From Bryobacterales bacterium (GTDB taxonomy: Bacteria; Acidobacteriota; Terriglobia; Bryobacterales; Bryobacteraceae), in contig JBBQQS010000001.1 in NCBI GenBank assembly GCA_038215525.1, positions 1-43,250 on the forward strand: 43,250 nucleotides of DNA. Direction: 5' to 3'. Position numbers and translations under genes: made by a program. Below, in pieces: positions 2,511 through 41,281 of the stretch. Numbering within the stretch: the stretch's first letter is position 1; each line of letters starts with the position of its first letter. The notes beneath the pieces are model-generated. The model made no database searches. It was not told the DNA's origin and worked only from the letters and a program-made list of their open reading frames with translations.

Positions 2511-5500
2511 GTGATCACTAGGCGCGACTTCGGCACCACCAGCGCCGTGGCCCTCACCACGGCCTTTGGCTTCTCGCTCGCCCCGGCCCAGGCCGCGGTG
2601 CGCGAACTGAAAATCTCCCGCACCACCCAATCCCGCAGCGTCTGCCCTTATTGCGCCGTCGGCTGCAGCGTCATCGTCCATTCGCTCGGCGACAAAGCCC
2701 GCAACGTCCGCTCCTCCGTCGTCCACATCGAAGGCGATACCGACTCACCCGTCAACCGCGGCACCCTCTGCTCCAAGGGCATCTCGCTCAAGCAATTCGT
2801 CAATTCTGACCGTCGCCTTACCAAGCCACTCTACCGCGCGCCCGGCGCCAAACAGTGGCAGGCCATCTCCTGGGATCAGGCCTTTGAGAAGATGGCGCGC
2901 CGCATCAAAGACTCGCGCGACCGCGGCTTCCTCGAGCAAGACGACCAGGGCCGCACCGTCAATCGCCTCGAAAACATCGTCATGATGGGCGGCTGCACCG
3001 ACACCAACGAAATCAATTACTTGATCTCCAAGTTCCGCTTCGGCCTCGGCCTGTTGCCCTACGAGAACCAAAGCCGGCTTTGACACGGTCCCACGGTGGC
3101 CAGTTTGGCCGCCACCTTCGGACGCGGCGCCATGACCAACGGCTGGACCGACGTCGCCAATGCCGACGTCATCCTCGTCATGGGCGGCAACCCCGCCGAA
3201 AATCACCCCGTCGGCTTCCGCTTTGTGATGGAAGCGCGCCTCAAGCGCAAAGCCAAGCTCGTCTGCGTCGACCCCCGCTTCACCCGCACCGCCGCCGTCG
3301 CCGACTATTACGTCCCCATCCGCTCCGGCAGCGACATCGCCTTCCTCGGCGGCCTCATCCACCGCGCTGTCTCCACCGGCAAGTACCAAGCCAACTACGT
3401 TCGCGAACACACTAACGCTGGCTTCCTCATTCAAGAGGGCTTCGGCTTCGAAGGCGGCCACTTCACCGGTTGGAACGCCGAGAAGAAGGCCTACGACAAG
3501 TCCACGTGGCAGTATGAGATGGGCCCCGATGGCTTCGCCAAAGTCGACCCTACGCTCGAACATCCCCGCTGCGTCTTCCAACTCATGCGCCAGCACTATG
3601 CGCGCTACACGCCGGAAAAGGTCTCCGAAATTTGCGGCTGCACGGTAGTGGAATTCGAACGCGCCGCTGACATGATCCTGGTCGCGCACGCCGAGAATAA
3701 GAGCGGCACCGTACTCTATGCTTTGGGTTGGACGCAGCACTCCCACGCCGTCCAACTCATCCACGCCGCCGCCATGGTCCAGTTACTCATGGGCAACATC
3801 GGCATGCCCGGCGGCGGAGTCAACGCCCAACGCGGCCACGCCAATATCCAAGGCTCCACCGACATGGGTGCCTGGAATATGCTCCCCGGCTATCTAAAAA
3901 TCCCGCGCGCTAACTGGACCTCGCTCGACGAATATCTGAAGGCCAACACTCCCAAGGCACTAAGACCCAATTCCATGAACTACTGGGGCAACACGCCTAA
4001 GTTCATGACCAGTTTATTGAAGGCTTACTACGGCGCCGATGCGACGCCGGAAAATCAATATGGCTATCAGTGGCTGCCGAAAATTGCCGAAGCAGCCAAT
4101 CATAGCTGGGCTTACTTCTTTGACGGCATGACCGAAGGCAAAGTGGAGGGCCTCATCAGTTGGGGCATGAACCCGGTCGCCAACGGCCCCAATACTAAGA
4201 AGATGCTGATGGGCTTATCCAAGCTCAAGTGGATGATCGTCGCCGAGGTCTTTGAAACCGAAACCGCCGGCTTCTGGAAGGCCAAAGAGTTAGCCGAAAA
4301 GTATTATCCCCAAGCCGGGGACGCCGCCAGTATCGAAACCGAAGTCTTCTTACTCCCCGCCTCTTGCTTTGCCGAAAAGGACGGGGCCTTCGTGAATTCT
4401 TCCCGCTGGTTACAATGGAAAGAAACCAATATCGAGCCCCCCGGCGACGCCAAGCGCGACCAGGAGATTATGTCGCGCCTCTTCCTCAAAGTCCGCGAAC
4501 TCTACGAGCAAGAAGGCGGTAGGTCCCCTGAGCCCCTCACTAAAATGAAGTGGGACTATGCCACGCCGCACTCGCCATCGCTCACCGAAGTCACCCGCGA
4601 GATCAGCGGCCGCGACCTCACTACCGGCAAACAACTCAATGGCTTCGGCGAACTCAAAGACGATGGCAGCACCGTCTCCGGCTGCTGGATTTACTCGGGC
4701 TCCTACACCGAAGCCGGCAACCAGATGGCCCGCAAAGGTCAGGAAGACCCCACCGGCCTGGGCCTTTATCCCAATTACTCCTGGAGTTGGCCCGCCAACC
4801 GCCGTATTCTTTATAACCGCGCTTCGCTCAGCACCGCCGGCAAACCCTGGGACGAAACCCGCGCCCCGTTGCGCTGGGATGGCCAACGCTGGAAGGGCGA
4901 CATCCCCGATTACAAGTCCGACGCCAAGCCCGAACAATACGGCTCTTTTACGATGCTCCCCGAAGGCGTTGCCCGGCTCTTTGCGCCGGAGTTAGTTGAG
5001 GGTCCTTTCCCGGAGCACTACGAGCCCGCCGAATCGCCGGTTGAGAATTCCCTTCATCCCTTAGTCAGCTTCAACCCCGCCGCCTGGGTCATCCAAGGCC
5101 TCGGCGATCAACTCGGCACTGCCAAGGATTATCCTTATGTCGGCATCTCCTATCGCCTCACCGAACACTTTCATTACTGGACTAAGAACGTATCCGCCAG
5201 CAGCCAATTACAAAGTAACTTCTTCGTTGAATTACCCGAGGCTTTGGCCAAAGAGAAAGGCATTGTAAGCGGCGACTTAGTGCGAGTTACTTCGGCCCGC
5301 GGCAAAGTAGAAGGCCCCGCCTTAGTCACCAAGCGTCTGCGCCCGCTTCAGATCTCCGGCCGCACCGTCTATCACGTCGGCCTGCCCATCCATTGGGGCT
5401 TCATCGGCCGCATCAACGGCCCGCTGATCAACAACCTCACCGCCTCCGTCTACGACCCCAACTCCGGCACCCCCGAGTATAAAGGCTTCCTTGTGAACCT

Positions 5501-8200: not shown

Positions 8201-8872
8201 GTGGAACTTCAGAAACAACTTGAGAAAATGCAGGCCGACTGGGATGCCCGGGCCAAAGAGAACGCGCGCTACTACGTGCAGACGGCCCAGGAAAACTGGA
8301 GCGACGAAGACTTCTTCGCTTCCGGCGAGCAGACCGTCCGGGAGGAGATCCTCACGGACATGATTAATATTTGCCAAGGTAAGCCGCCCAAGGAAATGCG
8401 CGTCCTCGAAATCGGCTGCGGCGCCGGGCGAGTTACCCGGGCTTTGGCCAACATCTTCGGCGAAGTCCACGCCGTCGACGTTTCGGGCGAGATGATCCGC
8501 ATGGCGCAGAGTGCACTTACTAGTCATCCGAACGCCCATGTCTATCAGAACAACGGCATGGATCTGGCGGTGTTAACCGAGGACCATTCTTTCGACTTTG
8601 CCTTCTCCAGCATCGTCTTTCAACATATCCCCAGCCGGGAAGTGATCGAAAACTATGTCCGCGAAGTAGGCCGTTTACTGAGGCCGGGCGCGTTGTTCAA
8701 GTTCCAGGTACAAGGCGATGCGTCGTTAGAAACCCACCCGGACGATACCTGGTTGGGCGTGCCTTTCTCCGACGAGCAGGCCGTCGAAATGGGCGAACGC
8801 TGTGGCTTTGAACCGCGTCATCGGCACGGTGCCGGCGAACAATACTTCTGGCTATGGTTCTTTAAGCGCTAG
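8201..8872 (+). CDS. Class I SAM-dependent methyltransferase
   Basis: Motif I VLEIGCGAGRVTRALA. Acidic post-I residue in VHAVDVSGEM. Motif-like FDFAFSSIVFQH. GTG start at 8201, with an alternative ATG at 8228. Confidence 0.8.
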   Translation: MELQKQLEKMQADWDARAKENARYYVQTAQENWSDEDFFASGEQTVREEILTDMINICQGKPPKEMRVLEIGCGAGRVTRALANIFGEVHAVDVSGEMIRMAQSALTSHPNAHVYQNNGMDLAVLTEDHSFDFAFSSIVFQHIPSREVIENYVREVGRLLRPGALFKFQVQGDASLETHPDDTWLGVPFSDEQAVEMGERCGFEPRHRHGAGEQYFWLWFFKR

Positions 8873-9089
8873 CTTGCGGCTTCGCTTTCCGGCGCTCTTC
8901 CCAATATTGGCGCATGCGGTTCGACACTTCGGCCCGCTCCGCTTCGGACATACCCTTGCGTCCCCGTTGCTTTTGACGGCGTACGGGGGCGTCGCCCCGA
9001 TGTTTTTCCATTTGCTCCAGTTGCAGAATGATCCCGCTGATGCGGTCGCGTTCGTCAACTAAGTCGCGGATGGCTTTTTCTAGGTCCAT
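8862..9089 (-). CDS. Small basic coiled-coil hypothetical protein
   Basis: 75-aa ORF with plausible composition (MDLEKAIRDLVDERDRISGIILQLEQ..RRQKQRGRKGMSEAERAEVSNRMRQYWEERRK). The convergent 11-nt overlap with the methyltransferase end is acceptable. No recognisable family. Confidence 0.5.
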   Translation of the reverse strand: MDLEKAIRDLVDERDRISGIILQLEQMEKHRGDAPVRRQKQRGRKGMSEAERAEVSNRMRQYWEERRKAKPQASA

Positions 9090-9148
9090 TACACATCCCC
9101 AGACCTACTACCATACCTGAATTGTTAATGAAATAGAATATTAAGCGT

Positions 9149-10207
9149 CTATTTTGCCAGGAATGGCCACTGCGATAGGAGGCGATAGCCGAACTTGACG
9201 ACCATCAGCCAGACGGTGATTCCACCAGTCAAGACCAGGGGCAGGCCGATGAAGAGGATGATTTTGCCCCAGGGGAAACTCTTGCCTTCGCGCTTCAGGG
9301 TAAGGATCCAACCCGCGAAGATACCCACGAAATAAAGCAATATCATGGGCAGCGAGAAGATCATTAGGTTGACCACGTCGGGCGTGGGAGTGACGACTGC
9401 GGCGAGGACGACGATGGCGAGGATGGCGTAGCGTGAGTGTTCGATCAGGAACCGGGGCGTCGTAATTCTCAGCATGATCAGGAAAAAGATCAGGATGGGA
9501 ATTTCAAAAACGATACCCACGCCGAGGGTAACATTGATGAATAGATCTAGATATTCAACGATGGAGATTAATGGCTCGATCTTGATATCCTTGCCGACAC
9601 CCAGGAGAAACTTGAGGCCGAAGCGGAAGGCAACGAAGTAGGCGAAGAGGCCGCCACTGATGAAGAGGCCGGCGGAAGTAAGGACGAAGGGGGCGGCAAA
9701 ACGGCGCTCGCGTTGGTAGAGCCCTGGGGCGACGAAGCTCCAGATTTGCCAAAGGATCCAGGGCGAGGCGATGAAGATTGACGCCAAAAGGGGCAGCTTC
9801 ACGTAAATCGTCATGAATCCGTCGATGGGACTTTGTTGGATCAGGCGCGGCGCGAAACCTAACTCGCTAAGTGCGGTGGTGGCGGGTTGCTGCACCAGGA
9901 TCCACATTTGCGGGGCAAAGAAAAGAGCCAGCATGAAGGCGACGCCCAAACCGGCCAAGCACTTGAGTAAGCGGCTGCGAAGCTCTTCGAGATGTTCGAG
10001 AAACGACATGCGGAGCATGCCGTCGTCGTCATCGTCGTCGTCAGCGCGGGAGCCGGAAGAGCCTGAGGGAGGTGGAGCGTTGCCGCCAACCACCGCGGGT
10101 AAATTGACGCCGGCCGAATGATCGACCGGCGTCGCAATGACAGCATGATGATCGTCGTGATAAGCGTCGACGTCAGGAACAATAGACGGCTTGATTTCTT
10201 CCGGCAT
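9149..10207 (-). CDS. tatC: Twin-arginine translocase subunit TatC (with a possible ~63-aa acidic N-terminal extension)
   Basis: Canonical TatC start motif MSFLEHLEELRSRLLK followed by six TM helices. The longest ORF adds an N-terminal region ending in a DDDDDDD run. Alternative starts exist at 10018 and 10009. Confidence 0.9.
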   Translation of the reverse strand: MPEEIKPSIVPDVDAYHDDHHAVIATPVDHSAGVNLPAVVGGNAPPPSGSSGSRADDDDDDDGMLRMSFLEHLEELRSRLLKCLAGLGVAFMLALFFAPQMWILVQQPATTALSELGFAPRLIQQSPIDGFMTIYVKLPLLASIFIASPWILWQIWSFVAPGLYQRERRFAAPFVLTSAGLFISGGLFAYFVAFRFGLKFLLGVGKDIKIEPLISIVEYLDLFINVTLGVGIVFEIPILIFFLIMLRITTPRFLIEHSRYAILAIVVLAAVVTPTPDVVNLMIFSLPMILLYFVGIFAGWILTLKREGKSFPWGKIILFIGLPLVLTGGITVWLMVVKFGYRLLSQWPFLAK

Positions 10208-10242: not shown

Positions 10243-10773
10243 CTAAGCTACCACCGCCGGCCCGCGTGGTTTACGCGGAGCGGGCTCGCCTTCAGGAGTG
10301 GCGGATCCCACGGGAACCGTCCCTTCGAGGGGAGCAGGCGAAGCAGCATCGGAAGCGGCAATCGAGTTATCAGCGCCCTGGGTTGCGGAAGCGCTTACGG
10401 TGTCAGCGGTCGTTTCGGGAGCAGCGATTTCCGCTTTAGCGACGGATTCCGCGCCGTACGTGTAACTGTCGTAGTTATCGTAGTAGGCGTCATTGCCATA
10501 GCCACTATTGTGGTAATGGTCATGAGGTAAGTCGTTGGTCGAGGTGTTGATCTCGTCCACGTGCTTCTGGACTTCGTTCTTAACGGAAGAGCTCTCCCGT
10601 TCGATCGCCTGCATTTCGCGGTCGAACGTGTATTTCAGCTCGTCTCGAGCGCGGCGGAATTCGGTGAGCGCTTTACCGACGGTCTTGCCGAGTTCGGGTA
10701 ACTTTTTAGGTCCGAAAACGACAAGGGCAACGATAAAGATGACAATCATCTCTTGAACGCCAATGGGGCCCAT
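10243..10773 (-). CDS. tatA: Twin-arginine translocase TatA/TatB-family protein (176 aa, long low-complexity tail)
   Basis: MGPIGVQEMIVIFIVALVVFGPKKLPELGKTVGKALTEFRRARDE is a canonical TatA/E N-terminus. GGAGG lies 7 nt upstream of the ATG (complement of 10771-10773). The track's 508-aa ORF is an artefactual upstream extension. Confidence 0.9.
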   Translation of the reverse strand: MGPIGVQEMIVIFIVALVVFGPKKLPELGKTVGKALTEFRRARDELKYTFDREMQAIERESSSVKNEVQKHVDEINTSTNDLPHDHYHNSGYGNDAYYDNYDSYTYGAESVAKAEIAAPETTADTVSASATQGADNSIAASDAASPAPLEGTVPVGSATPEGEPAPRKPRGPAVVA

Positions 10774-12273: not shown

Positions 12274-13212
12274 ATGCCTTTTCTAACCTTTCTTCTACTC
12301 GTGGCGTTGTGGGCCGTTCCGATGGCTTTCGGGGAGTCGATCAGCGGAAGGCTGGTGGACGTACAAGGCGTCGCGGTGTCCGGCGCGCAAGTGAAGCTAC
12401 TTGAGCGGATCGCGGTGTCAGAGGACAACGGGGCGTTCAGCTTATCCGAGGTGGCGACGGGGCCGTTTCGGCTGGAGTTCACCGCGAAAGGCTTCGCCGC
12501 AAAGACCATCATCGGCGAACTCAGTGCGGGGCAAAGCTTGACGCTGCCCGACACAGTGCTGATCGTGGACAAGTTCACCACCTCGGTAAATGTGACCCAG
12601 ACGCAGGTGGAGATCGCGCAGGAGCAGATCCGGGAGGCGGAGAAGCAGCGGATTGGCGGCCTGGTGCCGAACTTTTTCGCGAACTACAATCCGGACGCGG
12701 CGCCGCTGACGACGAAACAGAAGTTCGAGCTGACCTGGAAGACGCTGCTGGACCCTTCGACGTTCGTCATTACCGGCATCGCGGCCGGGGTGGACCAGGC
12801 GCGCAATACGCGCAAAGGCTTTGGCCAAGGGGCGCAAGGCTACGCCAAACGCTACGGGGCGTCGTACCTGGACTTCGCGACGACCTTGGCGATCGAAAAG
12901 GTGATCATGACGACGGTGTTTAAGCAGGACCCGCGCTATTTTGCCAAGTCGACCGGCAGCAAATGGTCACGGGTGGGTTGGGCGGTGAGCCGGAGCGTGA
13001 TCTGCCAAGGCGATAACCGGAAGGCGCAGTTTTGTTACTCGACCATCGGCAGCCGCTTTGCGTCGGGCTTTCTGACGAACCGGTATTACCCGGCGGATTC
13101 CCGGAATAGCTCGAGCGTGATTGTCCAGAATTCGTTGATCGGCATTGGCGCGGAGGCCGCGGGAAATCTGTTTCAGGAGTTTTTGGCACGGAAGCTGATG
13201 CGGAAGAAGTGA
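12274..13212 (+). CDS. Carboxypeptidase-regulatory-like domain protein, exported, function unknown
   Basis: Signal peptide, then ISGRLVDVQGVAVSGAQVKLL...SEDNGAFSLSEVATGPFRLEFTAKGF, a CarboxypepD_reg-like beta-sandwich. Confidence 0.7.
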   Translation: MPFLTFLLLVALWAVPMAFGESISGRLVDVQGVAVSGAQVKLLERIAVSEDNGAFSLSEVATGPFRLEFTAKGFAAKTIIGELSAGQSLTLPDTVLIVDKFTTSVNVTQTQVEIAQEQIREAEKQRIGGLVPNFFANYNPDAAPLTTKQKFELTWKTLLDPSTFVITGIAAGVDQARNTRKGFGQGAQGYAKRYGASYLDFATTLAIEKVIMTTVFKQDPRYFAKSTGSKWSRVGWAVSRSVICQGDNRKAQFCYSTIGSRFASGFLTNRYYPADSRNSSSVIVQNSLIGIGAEAAGNLFQEFLARKLMRKK

Positions 13213-39336: not shown

Positions 39337-39528
39337 CGGCCTGCCGGGAAGTTAACGGCGTCATAGCGATTTGGCCACAGATGGGCAGTTTCGGACCGGC
39401 TTCCAAAATCTCCCACTCAAAGAGCAGAAATCATCCCTGTAGCATGTTGTTAGGGAAGCACTTAAGGGTAAAACTCCGAGGTATACTGTGAAAAACAGCG
39501 AACTGTGCGAGTTTTTACTTGCACTTTA

Positions 39529-39544
39529 TTAACATATACGTTAA
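39529..39544. promoter_or_regulatory. Inverted repeat TTAAC-ATATAC-GTTAA 14 nt upstream of the toxin start; candidate operator inside an AT-rich promoter region
   Basis: Perfect 5-bp arms with a 6-bp AT-rich spacer. TTGCAC (39519-39524) and TAACTT (39542-47) are spaced 17 bp apart as a weak -35/-10 pair. Confidence 0.35.
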
Positions 39545-39557
39545 CTTGGAAGCGTGA

Positions 39558-39941
39558 ATGCACTCACACATCGCCTACTCTGGCGCCGCGGCGGATGTCG
39601 AATTCGCCATTTGCCTCAACCAGTCCCGCCCGGGACTTGAGTTCTACAATGGCCTCAGCCCCCGCGATCAGGCCAAGGTTCTGAAGCTCTTTCAGTGGCT
39701 GGGCGAGCACGGCTGGATCAAGAACAATGAAAAGTGGAAACCCATTGCGGAAACCGAGTTTTTCGAGTTTAAGAGCTTCCAAGTTCGCCTCCCTTGTTTC
39801 CGGTCGGGAAGTAGAAGATTTGTTATCACCCATGGCTTCATCAAAAAGCAGGACGCCATTGCGCCCAGCGAGATCGAAAGAGCCCAACGAATCAAAAGTG
39901 AGCACGAGCGCATCTCAAAAGCCGCTGGTTTTCATCGATAA
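39558..39941 (+). CDS. higB: HigB/Gp49-like (RelE-superfamily, DUF891/PF05973-type) toxin of the TAC cassette
   Basis: 127 aa. EFYNGLSPRDQAKVLKLFQWL...FFEFKSFQVRLPCFRSGSRRFVITHGFIKKQDAIAPSEIERAQRI follows the Gp49/HigB pattern (ElR..yRi.yf...vllhgF.KK..k.P..ei..A). The toxin-first gene order is typical of higBA. Confidence 0.75.
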   Translation: MHSHIAYSGAAADVEFAICLNQSRPGLEFYNGLSPRDQAKVLKLFQWLGEHGWIKNNEKWKPIAETEFFEFKSFQVRLPCFRSGSRRFVITHGFIKKQDAIAPSEIERAQRIKSEHERISKAAGFHR

Positions 39942-39961
39942 GCATCACGGAGAGCACCCAA

Positions 39962-40402
39962 ATGAAGAATCAGTTTGAACAGTTTAACCAAGACCCTGAG
40001 CGGCAACGGGTATACGAGCAGGAGTCCCTCGCTTTCGAGGCCACCGAAGTGATCTCCGATTTGATGTTGCGGCAAAACGTTAATAAATCGGAGTTGGCGA
40101 AGCGGATCGGCAGGAGCAAAGCTTATGTCACGCAATTGTTGAGCGGTAGTCGCAACATGACTCTGCACACCTTTGCCGATTTGGCTTTTGCCCTGGGCCA
40201 CCGCATTGAGATGTCGCCCGCGTCGCTCAATTCGGTTCGGGCACCGCGGGAAGAAGAGCTTCCGGCGCCGCGGTCTCAACTCGCCCTCGCCCAAGTCTGG
40301 GTCACCGTGGGCCAGAGCCAAGTTGCGACGCCGCAGTGGAAAAGCCAGGGCACCCGTTTTTCGCCGATTCTTCCGCGCTACTCAATCAACGGCGTAGCCT
40401 GA
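39962..40402 (+). CDS. higA: XRE-family HTH antitoxin (HigA-like) with a ~60-aa C-terminal extension
   Basis: The HTH is NKSELAKRIGRSKAYVTQLLSGSRNMTLHTFADLAFALG. GGAG lies 9 nt upstream of the ATG. Residues 85-146 lie beyond the HTH domain. Confidence 0.8.
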   Translation: MKNQFEQFNQDPERQRVYEQESLAFEATEVISDLMLRQNVNKSELAKRIGRSKAYVTQLLSGSRNMTLHTFADLAFALGHRIEMSPASLNSVRAPREEELPAPRSQLALAQVWVTVGQSQVATPQWKSQGTRFSPILPRYSINGVA

Positions 40403-40405
40403 CCC

Positions 40406-40912
40406 ATGATCATCGAACAAGACGCCCAGGAGACCAAGGACTCCTTTGCCTTTCACGCCAATGCAGCCATGCGCGATCTGCGCCTAGCAGAAGGCACTAT
40501 TTGGAGCGCCGGACCTTTCACCGCCGACCTCGCGGAAGCCGGACTGCTCAGCGAGATTCAATTTCGGCCCGGCGAAGCAAAGGCCGCCACGGGATCTGTC
40601 ACGCTCTGCATCGAGTTTCAGTATCGCGCGCTCAACGGCGCGGCGAACGAAGTGGAAGTACTCAAGCTTGGCTGCCGCTTCGAGGTGGAATATGCGCTGC
40701 GGGATGATTTTCATCCCACGCCCGCCCAGGTCCAGGCCTTCCATCGCGGTAACGCCGTCTTCAATTGCTGGCCCTTCTTTCGCGAGTTTGTGCTGAACAC
40801 CACGGTTCGCCTGGCCTATCCGCCGTCATTGATCCCATTTCTGCGCCTGGTGCCCAAACCTACGGCCTCCGCGCCAATCCCCAAGAAGCGGAAAAACCCC
40901 TCCAAGAGTTGA
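40406..40912 (+). CDS. SecB-like chaperone (third component of the toxin-antitoxin-chaperone system)
   Basis: 168 aa, starting 3 nt after the antitoxin stop. LKLGCRFEVEYAL...NAVFNCWPFFREFVLNTTVRLAYPPSLIPFLRL parallels the conserved SecB segment ...[32 protein letters not shown] (E. coli SecB, recalled from memory). Confidence 0.7.
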   Translation: MIIEQDAQETKDSFAFHANAAMRDLRLAEGTIWSAGPFTADLAEAGLLSEIQFRPGEAKAATGSVTLCIEFQYRALNGAANEVEVLKLGCRFEVEYALRDDFHPTPAQVQAFHRGNAVFNCWPFFREFVLNTTVRLAYPPSLIPFLRLVPKPTASAPIPKKRKNPSKS

Positions 40913-41071: not shown

Positions 41072-41281
41072 CTACTTCTTGAACAGGTCCAGCTTGCCGA
41101 ATTTCTCGGCCAGTAGGTAATATACGGTCACCCGGCTCTTGTTGTGTTCCGCCTTCATGGCGGTCATGACAGCGACGACCGCGGCGTCGAGATCGGCGTC
41201 GCTCTCGGTGAGGGCGAGTTTTTTCTTGAGGAAACTGCGGCGCGATGCGCTGATAAGATCAGAGATAAGGCCGTAAACTCT
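41072..41281 (-). pseudogene. Truncated DUF2853-like gene (C-terminal half only, no start codon)
   Basis: The open frame RVYGLISDLISASRRSFLKKKLALTESDADLDAAVVAVMTAMKAEHNKSRVTVYYLLAEKFGKLDLFKK is bounded upstream by TGA (complement of 41282-41284). It resembles the second half of ~100-aa DUF2853 proteins (..FLxKKLGL...LDAAI....M.....NK.R...YYLLA..FGK), as I recall them. There is no ATG/GTG/TTG before the internal Met. Confidence 0.45.

Follow-up and report, generated by a model that had tools for sequence, protein, structure and literature searches.

A candidate toxin–antitoxin–chaperone cassette

We analyzed a 43,250-nucleotide (nt) stretch of DNA from a Bryobacterales bacterium (assembly GCA_038215525.1, contig JBBQQS010000001.1, positions 1 to 43,250 of the forward strand; hereafter, the window) and found that three adjacent genes near its 3' end very likely constitute a tripartite toxin–antitoxin–chaperone (TAC) operon of the HigBA-SecB type, working by the mechanism proposed below; we put the probability of this reading at about 0.85. 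The same reading had been proposed in a first-pass annotation made from the sequence alone, and all of its elements that could be checked were upheld, namely the toxin, the XRE antitoxin, the SecB-fold chaperone, and the recurring gene order. The parts of the cassette are as follows.

39558-39941, + strand: gene 1, 127 amino acids (aa), HigB/Gp49-type toxin of the RelE superfamily, predicted ribosome-dependent mRNA endonuclease
39962-40402, + strand: gene 2, 146 aa, XRE-type helix-turn-helix (HTH) antitoxin
39962-40216, + strand: gene 2 residues 1-85, antitoxin domain, with the HTH at about residues 31-82
40217-40399, + strand: gene 2 residues 86-146, C-terminal extension, candidate chaperone-addiction (ChAD) region
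40394-40399, + strand: gene 2 Val145-Ala146, candidate ClpXP degron
40406-40912, + strand: gene 3, 168 aa, SecB-like toxin–antitoxin (TA) chaperone

All three genes are co-directional, with gaps of 20 nt between genes 1 and 2 and of 3 nt between genes 2 and 3. The reading frames, strand, and gaps reported in the first-pass annotation proved exact, and the peptide strings that it quoted are found in the window proteins. The junction between genes 2 and 3 reads GTA GCC TGA ccc ATG and leaves gene 3 in frame with gene 2, an arrangement that appears typical of translational coupling; because gene 3 starts only 3 nt past the gene 2 stop codon, such coupling is implied. Independent gene callers report the identical three genes and their context on at least six metagenome contigs that carry the exact gene 3 sequence. 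The precomputed Pfam annotation of those contigs is limited to a weak Gp49 match in gene 1, with genes 2 and 3 left blank, and homologues of gene 3 are nearly all labeled hypothetical. Thus, annotation pipelines leave gene 3 unannotated, as had been anticipated.

The third gene encodes a SecB-fold protein closest to Rv1957

A phmmer search of gene 3 against the PDB returned one significant match, Rv1957 (5mtw_C, E 9.6e-5), the TA chaperone of Mycobacterium tuberculosis (Mtb). When the search was carried out with a profile of 39 sequences, Rv1957 was again the sole match (E 2.4e-10). The AlphaFold (AF2) monomer model of gene 3 has a pLDDT (predicted local distance difference test) of 94.7 and a pTM (predicted TM score) of 0.83. 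Foldseek searches with this model placed the four Rv1957 chains (5mtw A-D) first, with E 1.5e-11, TM 0.84-0.87, and TMt 0.80-0.87, followed by canonical SecB of Escherichia coli and Haemophilus influenzae (1ozb/1fx3/1qyn, E ~1e-5). The earlier claim that gene 3 is SecB-like therefore stands for the fold, with Rv1957 as the nearest solved relative, but gene 3 has no match to the Pfam SecB family PF02556, and the link runs only through Rv1957 and the structure. Among the members of the gene 3 family, 7 of 39 match PF02556, all weakly (best E 0.0037), and in PADLOC gene 3 weakly matches PD-T4-9_C (E 0.001), that is, CmdC, the SecB-like chaperone of the CmdTAC system. Filing gene 3 under PF02556 was rejected, given the missing Pfam SecB match, the empty NCBIfam result, and a PADLOC result limited to the weak CmdC match.

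The first-pass annotation had also quoted a block of Rv1957, YPYIREYV.DLTGRLALPPLTL; the quotation is correct, and the block aligns to its counterpart in gene 3. Furthermore, five Rv1957 residues, D27, R29, E143, D147, and R151, have been assigned to the surroundings of the ChAD tryptophan pocket and to a charged patch (Guillet et al.). Mapping these onto gene 3, with the PDB chain numbered as Rv1957 + 3, gave D24, R26, E127, N131, and R135, respectively, so that four of the five are kept and D147 is replaced by asparagine. R26, E127, and R135 are invariant in the gene 3 family, which is large, comprising 3,471 representative clusters at E ≤ 1e-3 and 1,115 at E ≤ 1e-10. Among the sampled genome records, the gene 3 clade is concentrated in Acidobacteriota.

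The last residues of gene 3 (151-168, positions 40856-40909) form a basic, proline- and lysine-rich tail, KPTASAPIPKKRKNPSKS (containing KKRKNPSKS), and the tails of its homologues are variable and basic. The tail of canonical SecB is acidic and binds SecA.

The first gene encodes a HigB/Gp49-type toxin

Gene 1 matches the Pfam family Gp49 (PF05973) over profile positions 4-88 of 90 with 27.1 bits, above the curated cutoff of 23.9. A word-indexed search yielded 11 homologues, to which further ones were added from related loci, and the resulting family profile (15 sequences) had a single significant match in the PDB, HigB of Streptococcus pneumoniae (6af3, E 6.1e-8). The AF2 model (pLDDT 91.1) shows a RelE-type fold followed by a helix at residues 103-123, the long C-terminal helix of Gp49-like HigB toxins; this helix has been described as a trait of the group (Mansour et al., PMC9098466). 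In Foldseek, the best matches were S. pneumoniae HigB (6af4/6af3, TM 0.75-0.80), followed by Mtb HigB1 (7nbu_Y/7awk, TM 0.65-0.70, TMt 0.68-0.70) and then RelE toxins. The initial assignment to Gp49/HigB is thus borne out both by a score above the Pfam gathering threshold and by a confident model that matches HigB toxins, including the toxin of the Mtb TAC.

The catalytic residues of S. pneumoniae HigB, R68/R73/K92, are equivalent to R68/R77/K95 of Mtb HigB1 (PMC9098466). By hidden Markov model alignment, K72, R77, and K96 of gene 1 show the same spacing as the S. pneumoniae triad (5 and 19 residues), with lysine (K72) at the position of R68, and all three are invariant across the 15 gene 1 homologues. 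Given the HigB fold and these invariant residues, we regard gene 1 as probably an active ribosome-dependent mRNA endonuclease.

The second gene encodes an XRE-type antitoxin with an aromatic tail

Residues 31-82 of gene 2 match the Pfam family HTH_26 (PF13443) with 24.0 bits against a cutoff of 22, while HTH_3 and HTH_31 score slightly under their cutoffs; the match to the NCBIfam HigA equivalog TIGR02607 reaches 13.5 bits, below its cutoff of 47.7. The XRE call of the first-pass annotation is therefore confirmed through HTH_26, and a long C-terminal extension is present. We found 91 homologues of gene 2, many of which are named XRE regulator or HigA antitoxin. Searching the PDB with the antitoxin family profile gave no match at E ≤ 0.01, with HigA and HipB antitoxins as weak matches at E 0.011-0.2. 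Judged by its sequence, gene 2 is an XRE-type HTH antitoxin in the HigA position that lies outside the TIGR02607 equivalog.

Past the HTH domain, gene 2 continues for 61 residues that are rich in proline, serine, and glutamine and contain the aromatic residues W113, W126, F133, and Y140 as well as a hydrophobic patch, LALAQVWVTV. The protein terminates in ...INGVA, that is, with Val-Ala. In known TACs, the ChAD is a variable, unstructured C-terminal extension whose aromatic residues slot into pockets of the SecB-type chaperone (PMC5105189, PMC6377645, PMC11618068, bioRxiv 10.1101/2024.02.24.581848). As cited in the last of these, a preprint, Val-Ala is reported to be the ClpXP degron of Mtb HigA1, and CmdA, the antitoxin of CmdTAC, ends in an Ala-Ala degron of ClpXP type (PMC5105189, PMC6377645, PMC11618068, bioRxiv 10.1101/2024.02.24.581848). 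Such an ssrA-like degron holds for Mtb HigA1 and CmdA and is not universal among TAC antitoxins.

At two further loci (L017 and L018), gene 2 is present as a 99%-identical copy. The sole amino acid differences from the window are E99V and R132C (codons 40256-40258 and 40355-40357), both of which lie in the tail, where R132 adjoins the aromatic F133. In these populations, gene 3 is 99-100% identical.

Antitoxin tail features co-occur with the chaperone gene

We scanned metagenome contigs with the antitoxin-family alignment, which gave 80 loci, and genome contigs with the chaperone alignment, which gave 16 loci; 15 of the latter are labeled Acidobacteriota (mostly Bryobacterales or Solibacteraceae) and one Myxococcales. 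For comparison, we used the 61 non-redundant loci at which the antitoxin gene is complete and the downstream DNA long enough for an assessment. The chaperone gene directly follows the antitoxin gene in 44 of them, with a median gap of about 10 nt, and is absent from the other 17. Conservation of the three-gene order in relatives, which the first-pass annotation had named as a check on its reading, is thus seen in 44 of 61 assessable loci. The antitoxins of the two groups differed as follows.

Antitoxin ending in [A/V/G/I]-Ala: 38 of 44 loci with the chaperone gene; 0 of 17 loci without it
Median antitoxin tail length: 56.5 aa with the chaperone gene; 34 aa without it
Median number of aromatic residues in the tail: 5 with the chaperone gene; 0 without it

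The association with chaperone presence was strong for both the terminal dipeptide (Fisher's exact test, p 1.9e-10) and the number of tail aromatics (Mann-Whitney test, p 1e-7), in each case with relatedness ignored. At chaperone-free loci, the antitoxin tails are instead rich in lysine and arginine. On a neighbor-joining tree of the antitoxin N-terminal domains, chaperone presence changed at least nine times, and the alanine terminus was missing from every chaperone-free lineage. Because of these repeated changes, the association between tail and chaperone does not go back to one inherited event. One comparison looks like a recent loss of the chaperone: in L025, where the chaperone is present, the antitoxin ends in ...SVAA, while in L029 and L023 the tail starts as in L025 and lacks the SVAA ending, with no chaperone gene in the downstream DNA at hand. 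We consider the co-occurrence of tail and degron to be the strongest computational evidence here that the window antitoxin would depend on gene 3.

At five loci (L022, L084, L085, L086, and L094), the chaperone gene lies 123-329 nt past the antitoxin gene, and in L022 and L084-L086 the antitoxin tail is 13-23 aa long and lacks the alanine terminus. Such cases most likely reflect an early stop codon or a frameshift within the tail of the antitoxin, if not a misassembly.

The same chaperone clade was also found behind MqsA-like (PF15731) and HI1420-like (PF21716) antitoxins and behind other XRE proteins that follow Gp49 toxins. These antitoxins end in ...GLVA, ...GMVA, ...SYAA, ...EMAA, ...GAYA, ...NIAA, ...CYIA, and ...ELVA. 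In all, at least four antitoxin types pair with the clade (L003, L004, L006, L014, L007, L011, L005, L016, L010, and L008), nearly all of them ending in VA, AA, YA, or IA. This suggests that an alanine-terminal dipeptide may be a general requirement for partners of this chaperone clade.

Two further loci show the chaperone in other surroundings. In a Bryobacteraceae metagenome-assembled genome (L015:3800-4010, JBGPKH010000050.1), a chaperone homologue directly follows a dnaE-like gene, and no TA pair is present. The short spacer still encodes ...YQGGMVA*, close to the C terminus of the MqsA-like antitoxin in L006, so that L015 looks like a decayed TAC retaining only the chaperone and the end of the antitoxin tail. 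On plasmid MP1 of Deinococcus radiodurans R1 (L097; NC_000958.1, 170205-171565), the gene 3 homologue DR_RS16170 (30.8% identical, annotated as hypothetical) follows a HicA toxin gene, and the position expected for HicB is an unlisted gap; a McrB-family gene, a DNA methyltransferase gene, and an IS630 transposase gene are found in the vicinity.

A putative upstream control region

Two short elements precede the toxin and antitoxin genes.

39519-39545, + strand: upstream control element, with TTGCAC (39519-39524, -35-like) followed by the palindrome ATTAAC-ATATAC-GTTAAC (39528-39545)
39948-39953, + strand: GGAGAG, ribosome-binding site of gene 2 as read from the sequence, 8 nt 5' of the ATG

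The short palindrome was missed by the repeat search, and the upstream element emerged only from a comparison of upstream regions, in which the consensus cTTGc-N5-GTTnAcaTaTATGTTAACtTgagg-N2-GtgaATG was present in 49 of 51 non-identical regions from family loci. The palindrome ends at a distance of 13 nt from the gene 1 ATG, and the pattern TTAAC-N6-GTTAA occurs only once in the whole window. We presume that the element combines a promoter and, overlapping it, an operator to be bound by the HTH antitoxin.

An imperfect hairpin, GTGCGAGT-TTTT-ACTTGCAC, lies at 39505-39524 (+ strand), is followed by a T-rich run, and had been flagged as terminator-like. A role as a terminator was set aside, as no + strand gene lies upstream and the hairpin partly coincides with the conserved TTGC motif; a second operator is a possible function.

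Genomic context and composition

Upstream of the cassette lie genes for LpxA, LpxD, and a HEAT-like protein, and downstream those for a HisKA_3 kinase and a LuxR-type response regulator. We found no tRNA genes, Rfam elements, integrase or recombinase genes, or repeats around the cassette. Between gene 3 and the histidine kinase gene, a spacer of 398 nt contains, on the - strand (41072-41278), a start-less fragment that matches DUF2853 (PF11015) in its C-terminal half, with E 6e-15 and over profile positions 50-100 of 101. Gene callers give only a 31-aa open reading frame (ORF) there, and the fragment is probably a pseudogene remnant.

The GC content rises from 0.466 in the upstream spacer through 0.531 in gene 1 and 0.569 in gene 2 to 0.594 in gene 3, compared with a window mean of 0.611 (sd 0.037) and 0.63-0.66 in the flanking genes, and GC at third codon positions is 0.65-0.70 in the cassette versus 0.75-0.81 in the flanks. 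The lowest 384-nt GC stretch of the whole contig starts at 39401, and several other patches are nearly as low; at window positions 3841-4041, 8781-9481, 10361-10481, and 13001-13201, GC is 0.50-0.54, comparable to the cassette. Thus, the dip in GC described in the first-pass annotation is real though modest, and the value of about 50% given for gene 1 was too low. The composition is suggestive of the acquisition also deduced there, and equally low patches exist elsewhere in the window. Varied genomic contexts fit a mobile module: the flanking genes of the window cassette were shared by 0 of 94 loci from other organisms, which means that the cassette sits at different places in different genomes. 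TACs in general have been concluded to move horizontally (Sala et al., PMC3581621). Together, the GC dip and the varied contexts fit an accessory, horizontally moving module, without proving recent acquisition in this genome. The taxonomic labels on homologues of the cassette genes point to an acidobacterial-type host, which is weak evidence in the case of a module that moves between genomes.

Proposed mechanism and alternative explanations

All sequence-level features of a TAC that could be checked are present in the window, that is, the operon architecture, the SecB-fold chaperone, the antitoxin extension, and the degron. In the mechanism that we propose, the three genes would be co-transcribed from a promoter overlapping the GTTAAC-type palindrome, and the XRE antitoxin would probably bind this palindrome, by itself or together with the toxin, and so repress its own operon. 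The gene 1 toxin would cleave ribosome-bound mRNA and so stop translation, unless neutralized by the N-terminal HTH domain of gene 2. The disordered, aromatic-rich, 61-residue tail of gene 2 with its Val-Ala end is predicted to render gene 2's product aggregation-prone and a substrate of ClpXP, and the gene 3 chaperone, presumably a tetramer, would bind the aromatic motifs of the tail and thus keep the antitoxin soluble and protected. Titration of the chaperone by other unfolded clients, which might arise from export or proteotoxic stress or be a phage structural protein, would then lead to loss of the antitoxin, release of the toxin, and arrest of growth or infection. The same logic has been shown experimentally for the Mtb TAC, E. 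coli HigBAC, and CmdTAC (PMC5105189, PMC6377645, PMC11618068, bioRxiv 10.1101/2024.02.24.581848).

Several results weigh against this interpretation. Gene 3 had no match to PF02556 at E ≤ 1 and none to any NCBIfam model, SecB included. The gene 2 tail does not resemble the Mtb ChAD motif WHRLSSYR in sequence and shares with that ChAD general features only (aromatic residues, length, and the VA end). A generic sigma-70 scan gave no promoter match upstream of the cassette. The locus statistics are drawn from metagenome contigs, and the correction by tree is crude. Among the chaperone-linked antitoxins, six lack an [AVGI]A end; four of these six have short tails and gaps of 123-329 nt to the chaperone gene and are for that reason probably truncated. 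Last, E. coli HigBAC is independent of ClpXP (bioRxiv 10.1101/2024.02.24.581848), so that the degron step may be non-essential.

The most direct alternative is an ordinary two-gene HigBA module whose antitoxin would act independently of gene 3, the latter being an unrelated neighbor with a general or export-related SecB function. Since Rv1957 is able to substitute for E. coli SecB (PMC3581621), general functions are within the scope of SecB-like proteins; gene 3 adopts the SecB fold, and 17 of the 61 family loci function without a chaperone gene. However, the nearest relative of gene 3 is the TA-specialized Rv1957 and not canonical SecB, and gene 3 lacks a Pfam SecB match. In the 16 genome loci, its family directly follows an antitoxin gene or a C-terminal antitoxin fragment, the 3-nt gap in the window implies translational coupling with gene 2, and the antitoxin tail features are found only where the chaperone is present. 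An independent two-gene module thus appears very improbable. We give equally little credence to the idea that the cassette is a decaying, inactive remnant. Decayed relatives do exist, such as L015 with its antitoxin tail fragment and chaperone, or L022 and L084-L086 with their shortened antitoxins, and the DUF2853 pseudogene fragment lies immediately downstream in the window. Nevertheless, all three ORFs are intact and as long as their full-length homologues, the catalytic and pocket positions retain their conserved residues, neither the promoter palindrome nor the ribosome-binding site is disrupted, and several independent metagenomes contain the proteins at 99-100% identity.

Within the TAC interpretation, the physiological role could take two forms. 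The cassette might be a stress-responsive growth brake or a selfish addiction or stabilization module with no part in defense, triggered by chaperone overload. This was the original model for the Mtb TAC (PMC3581621, PMC5105189). The window cassette is chromosomal, lies among housekeeping genes, and is kept at an unchanged location in at least six metagenome contigs that come from one organism. For type II TA systems in general, a role in stress is disputed, and on balance we place this role somewhat short of even odds. The other form, a role in anti-phage abortive infection, in which the chaperone would be a sensor titrated by newly made phage capsid or tail protein, seems possible though rather unlikely. 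E. coli HigBAC is triggered by lambda gpV (bioRxiv 10.1101/2024.02.24.581848), CmdTAC responds to the T4 capsid protein, and MqsRAC confers protection against T2; moreover, gene 3 has its weak PADLOC match to CmdC, the D. radiodurans plasmid homologue adjoins a McrB-family gene and a DNA methyltransferase gene, and the different contexts of the cassette across genomes suggest mobility. On the other hand, the window neighbors are LpxA, LpxD, and a two-component system, and no gene 3 homologue was found in phage records. Among 106 flanking ORFs from 46 chaperone-bearing loci, PADLOC matched two, both to generic Ser/Thr-kinase-type models, and we therefore rejected neighborhood support for a defense role. 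The phage-defense idea raised in the first-pass annotation thus stays speculative, with no defense-gene neighborhood in the PADLOC scan of flanking ORFs.

A broader proposal, which we consider doubtful as a whole, is that gene 3 belongs to a large, mostly unannotated group of SecB-like TA chaperones that acts as a portable sensor for phage structural proteins and leads to abortive infection in soil Acidobacteriota. The clade would have been repeatedly coupled to Gp49-XRE, MqsRA-like, HI1419/HI1420-like, and HicAB pairs, the antitoxin gaining an aromatic tail and an [A/V]-Ala degron on each occasion.

Significance

TACs show more clearly than any other system that a chaperone can be the switch of a TA module, and those of E. 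coli have recently been shown to sense phage proteins. The cassette described here brings an uncultured, acidobacterial-type lineage into the class. It also reveals a gap in annotation, since gene 3 is beyond the reach of Pfam SecB, which touches few of its relatives and those marginally; operons of this kind are consequently recorded as a simple HigBA pair next to a hypothetical protein. The practical value of the analysis is that it flags this under-annotated chaperone family. Furthermore, at least nine gains or losses of the chaperone within one antitoxin family amount to a natural experiment, and the comparison supports the generality of the chaperone-addiction model. Tail plus degron is suggested as a simple sequence rule for recognizing TACs.

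Comparison with known systems

The first-pass annotation described TACs as characterized almost only in mycobacteria, a statement that is outdated, since experiments have been carried out on TACs of Geobacter, Vibrio, Methylomonas, and E. coli (PMC5105189, PMC9519451, PMC11618068, bioRxiv 10.1101/2024.02.24.581848). We compared the window cassette with five known systems. Canonical SecB (PF02556; 1qyn, 1fx3, 1ozb) has the same fold as gene 3 (Foldseek E ~1e-5, TMt 0.63-0.77) and the helix-1 motif form FxxWPFFRE...R...PP in common with it (PMC3581621). However, the identity is only 7-10%, and gene 3, in contrast to canonical SecB, has no PF02556 match and belongs to genes that are always linked to a TA pair. 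HigBA of S. pneumoniae (6af3, 6af4) contains the closest solved relative of the toxin by both profile and structure, with an identity of about 20%, but it is a two-component system without a chaperone.

CmdTAC (PD-T4-9) of E. coli ECOR22 resembles the window cassette in its SecB-like chaperone, to which gene 3 has its weak PADLOC match (E 0.001), and in an antitoxin that ends in a ClpXP-type Ala-Ala degron and is stabilized by the chaperone. Its toxin CmdT, in contrast, is an mRNA ADP-ribosyltransferase, and the antitoxins are unrelated. Assigning the window cassette to CmdTAC was therefore rejected, as its toxin has the Gp49/HigB fold. HigBAC of E. coli NT1F31 (Mets et al., bioRxiv 10.1101/2024.02.24.581848) consists of a HigB-type toxin, a HigA antitoxin whose aromatic ChAD is unstructured, and the chaperone SecB(TA), and the residues W113, W126, F133, and Y140 of the window fit the multi-aromatic recognition pattern described for it. 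The two differ in the ChAD, which in HigBAC has 96 residues with aromatics about 30 apart, whereas the window tail has 61 residues with spacings of 13, 7, and 7, and also in that HigBAC is ClpXP-independent, while the window antitoxin has a VA end.

Several differences separate the window cassette from the Mtb TAC HigB1-HigA1-SecB(TA) (Rv1955-Rv1956-Rv1957). Gene 3 is only 20-23% identical to Rv1957 and has asparagine in place of D147; the toxins are about 18-21% identical, and the gene 1 family profile has no sequence match to HigB1; the window tail lacks a WHRLSSYR-type repeat. The hosts differ as well, Mtb being an actinobacterium and the window host of acidobacterial type. Despite these differences, both systems have the same order of toxin, antitoxin, and chaperone, a toxin of the Gp49-like HigB fold with a long C-terminal helix, and an XRE antitoxin whose C-terminal extension, about 45-60 residues long, includes Trp, Tyr, and Phe and has a Val-Ala end. 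Rv1957 is, moreover, the best match of gene 3 in both sequence and structure, with the equivalents of D27, R29, E143, and R151 kept. We thus agree with the first-pass judgment of a divergent instance of a described family: the cassette is a divergent addition to the known TAC class that involves no new mechanism, and its nearest characterized relative is Rv1955-Rv1957.

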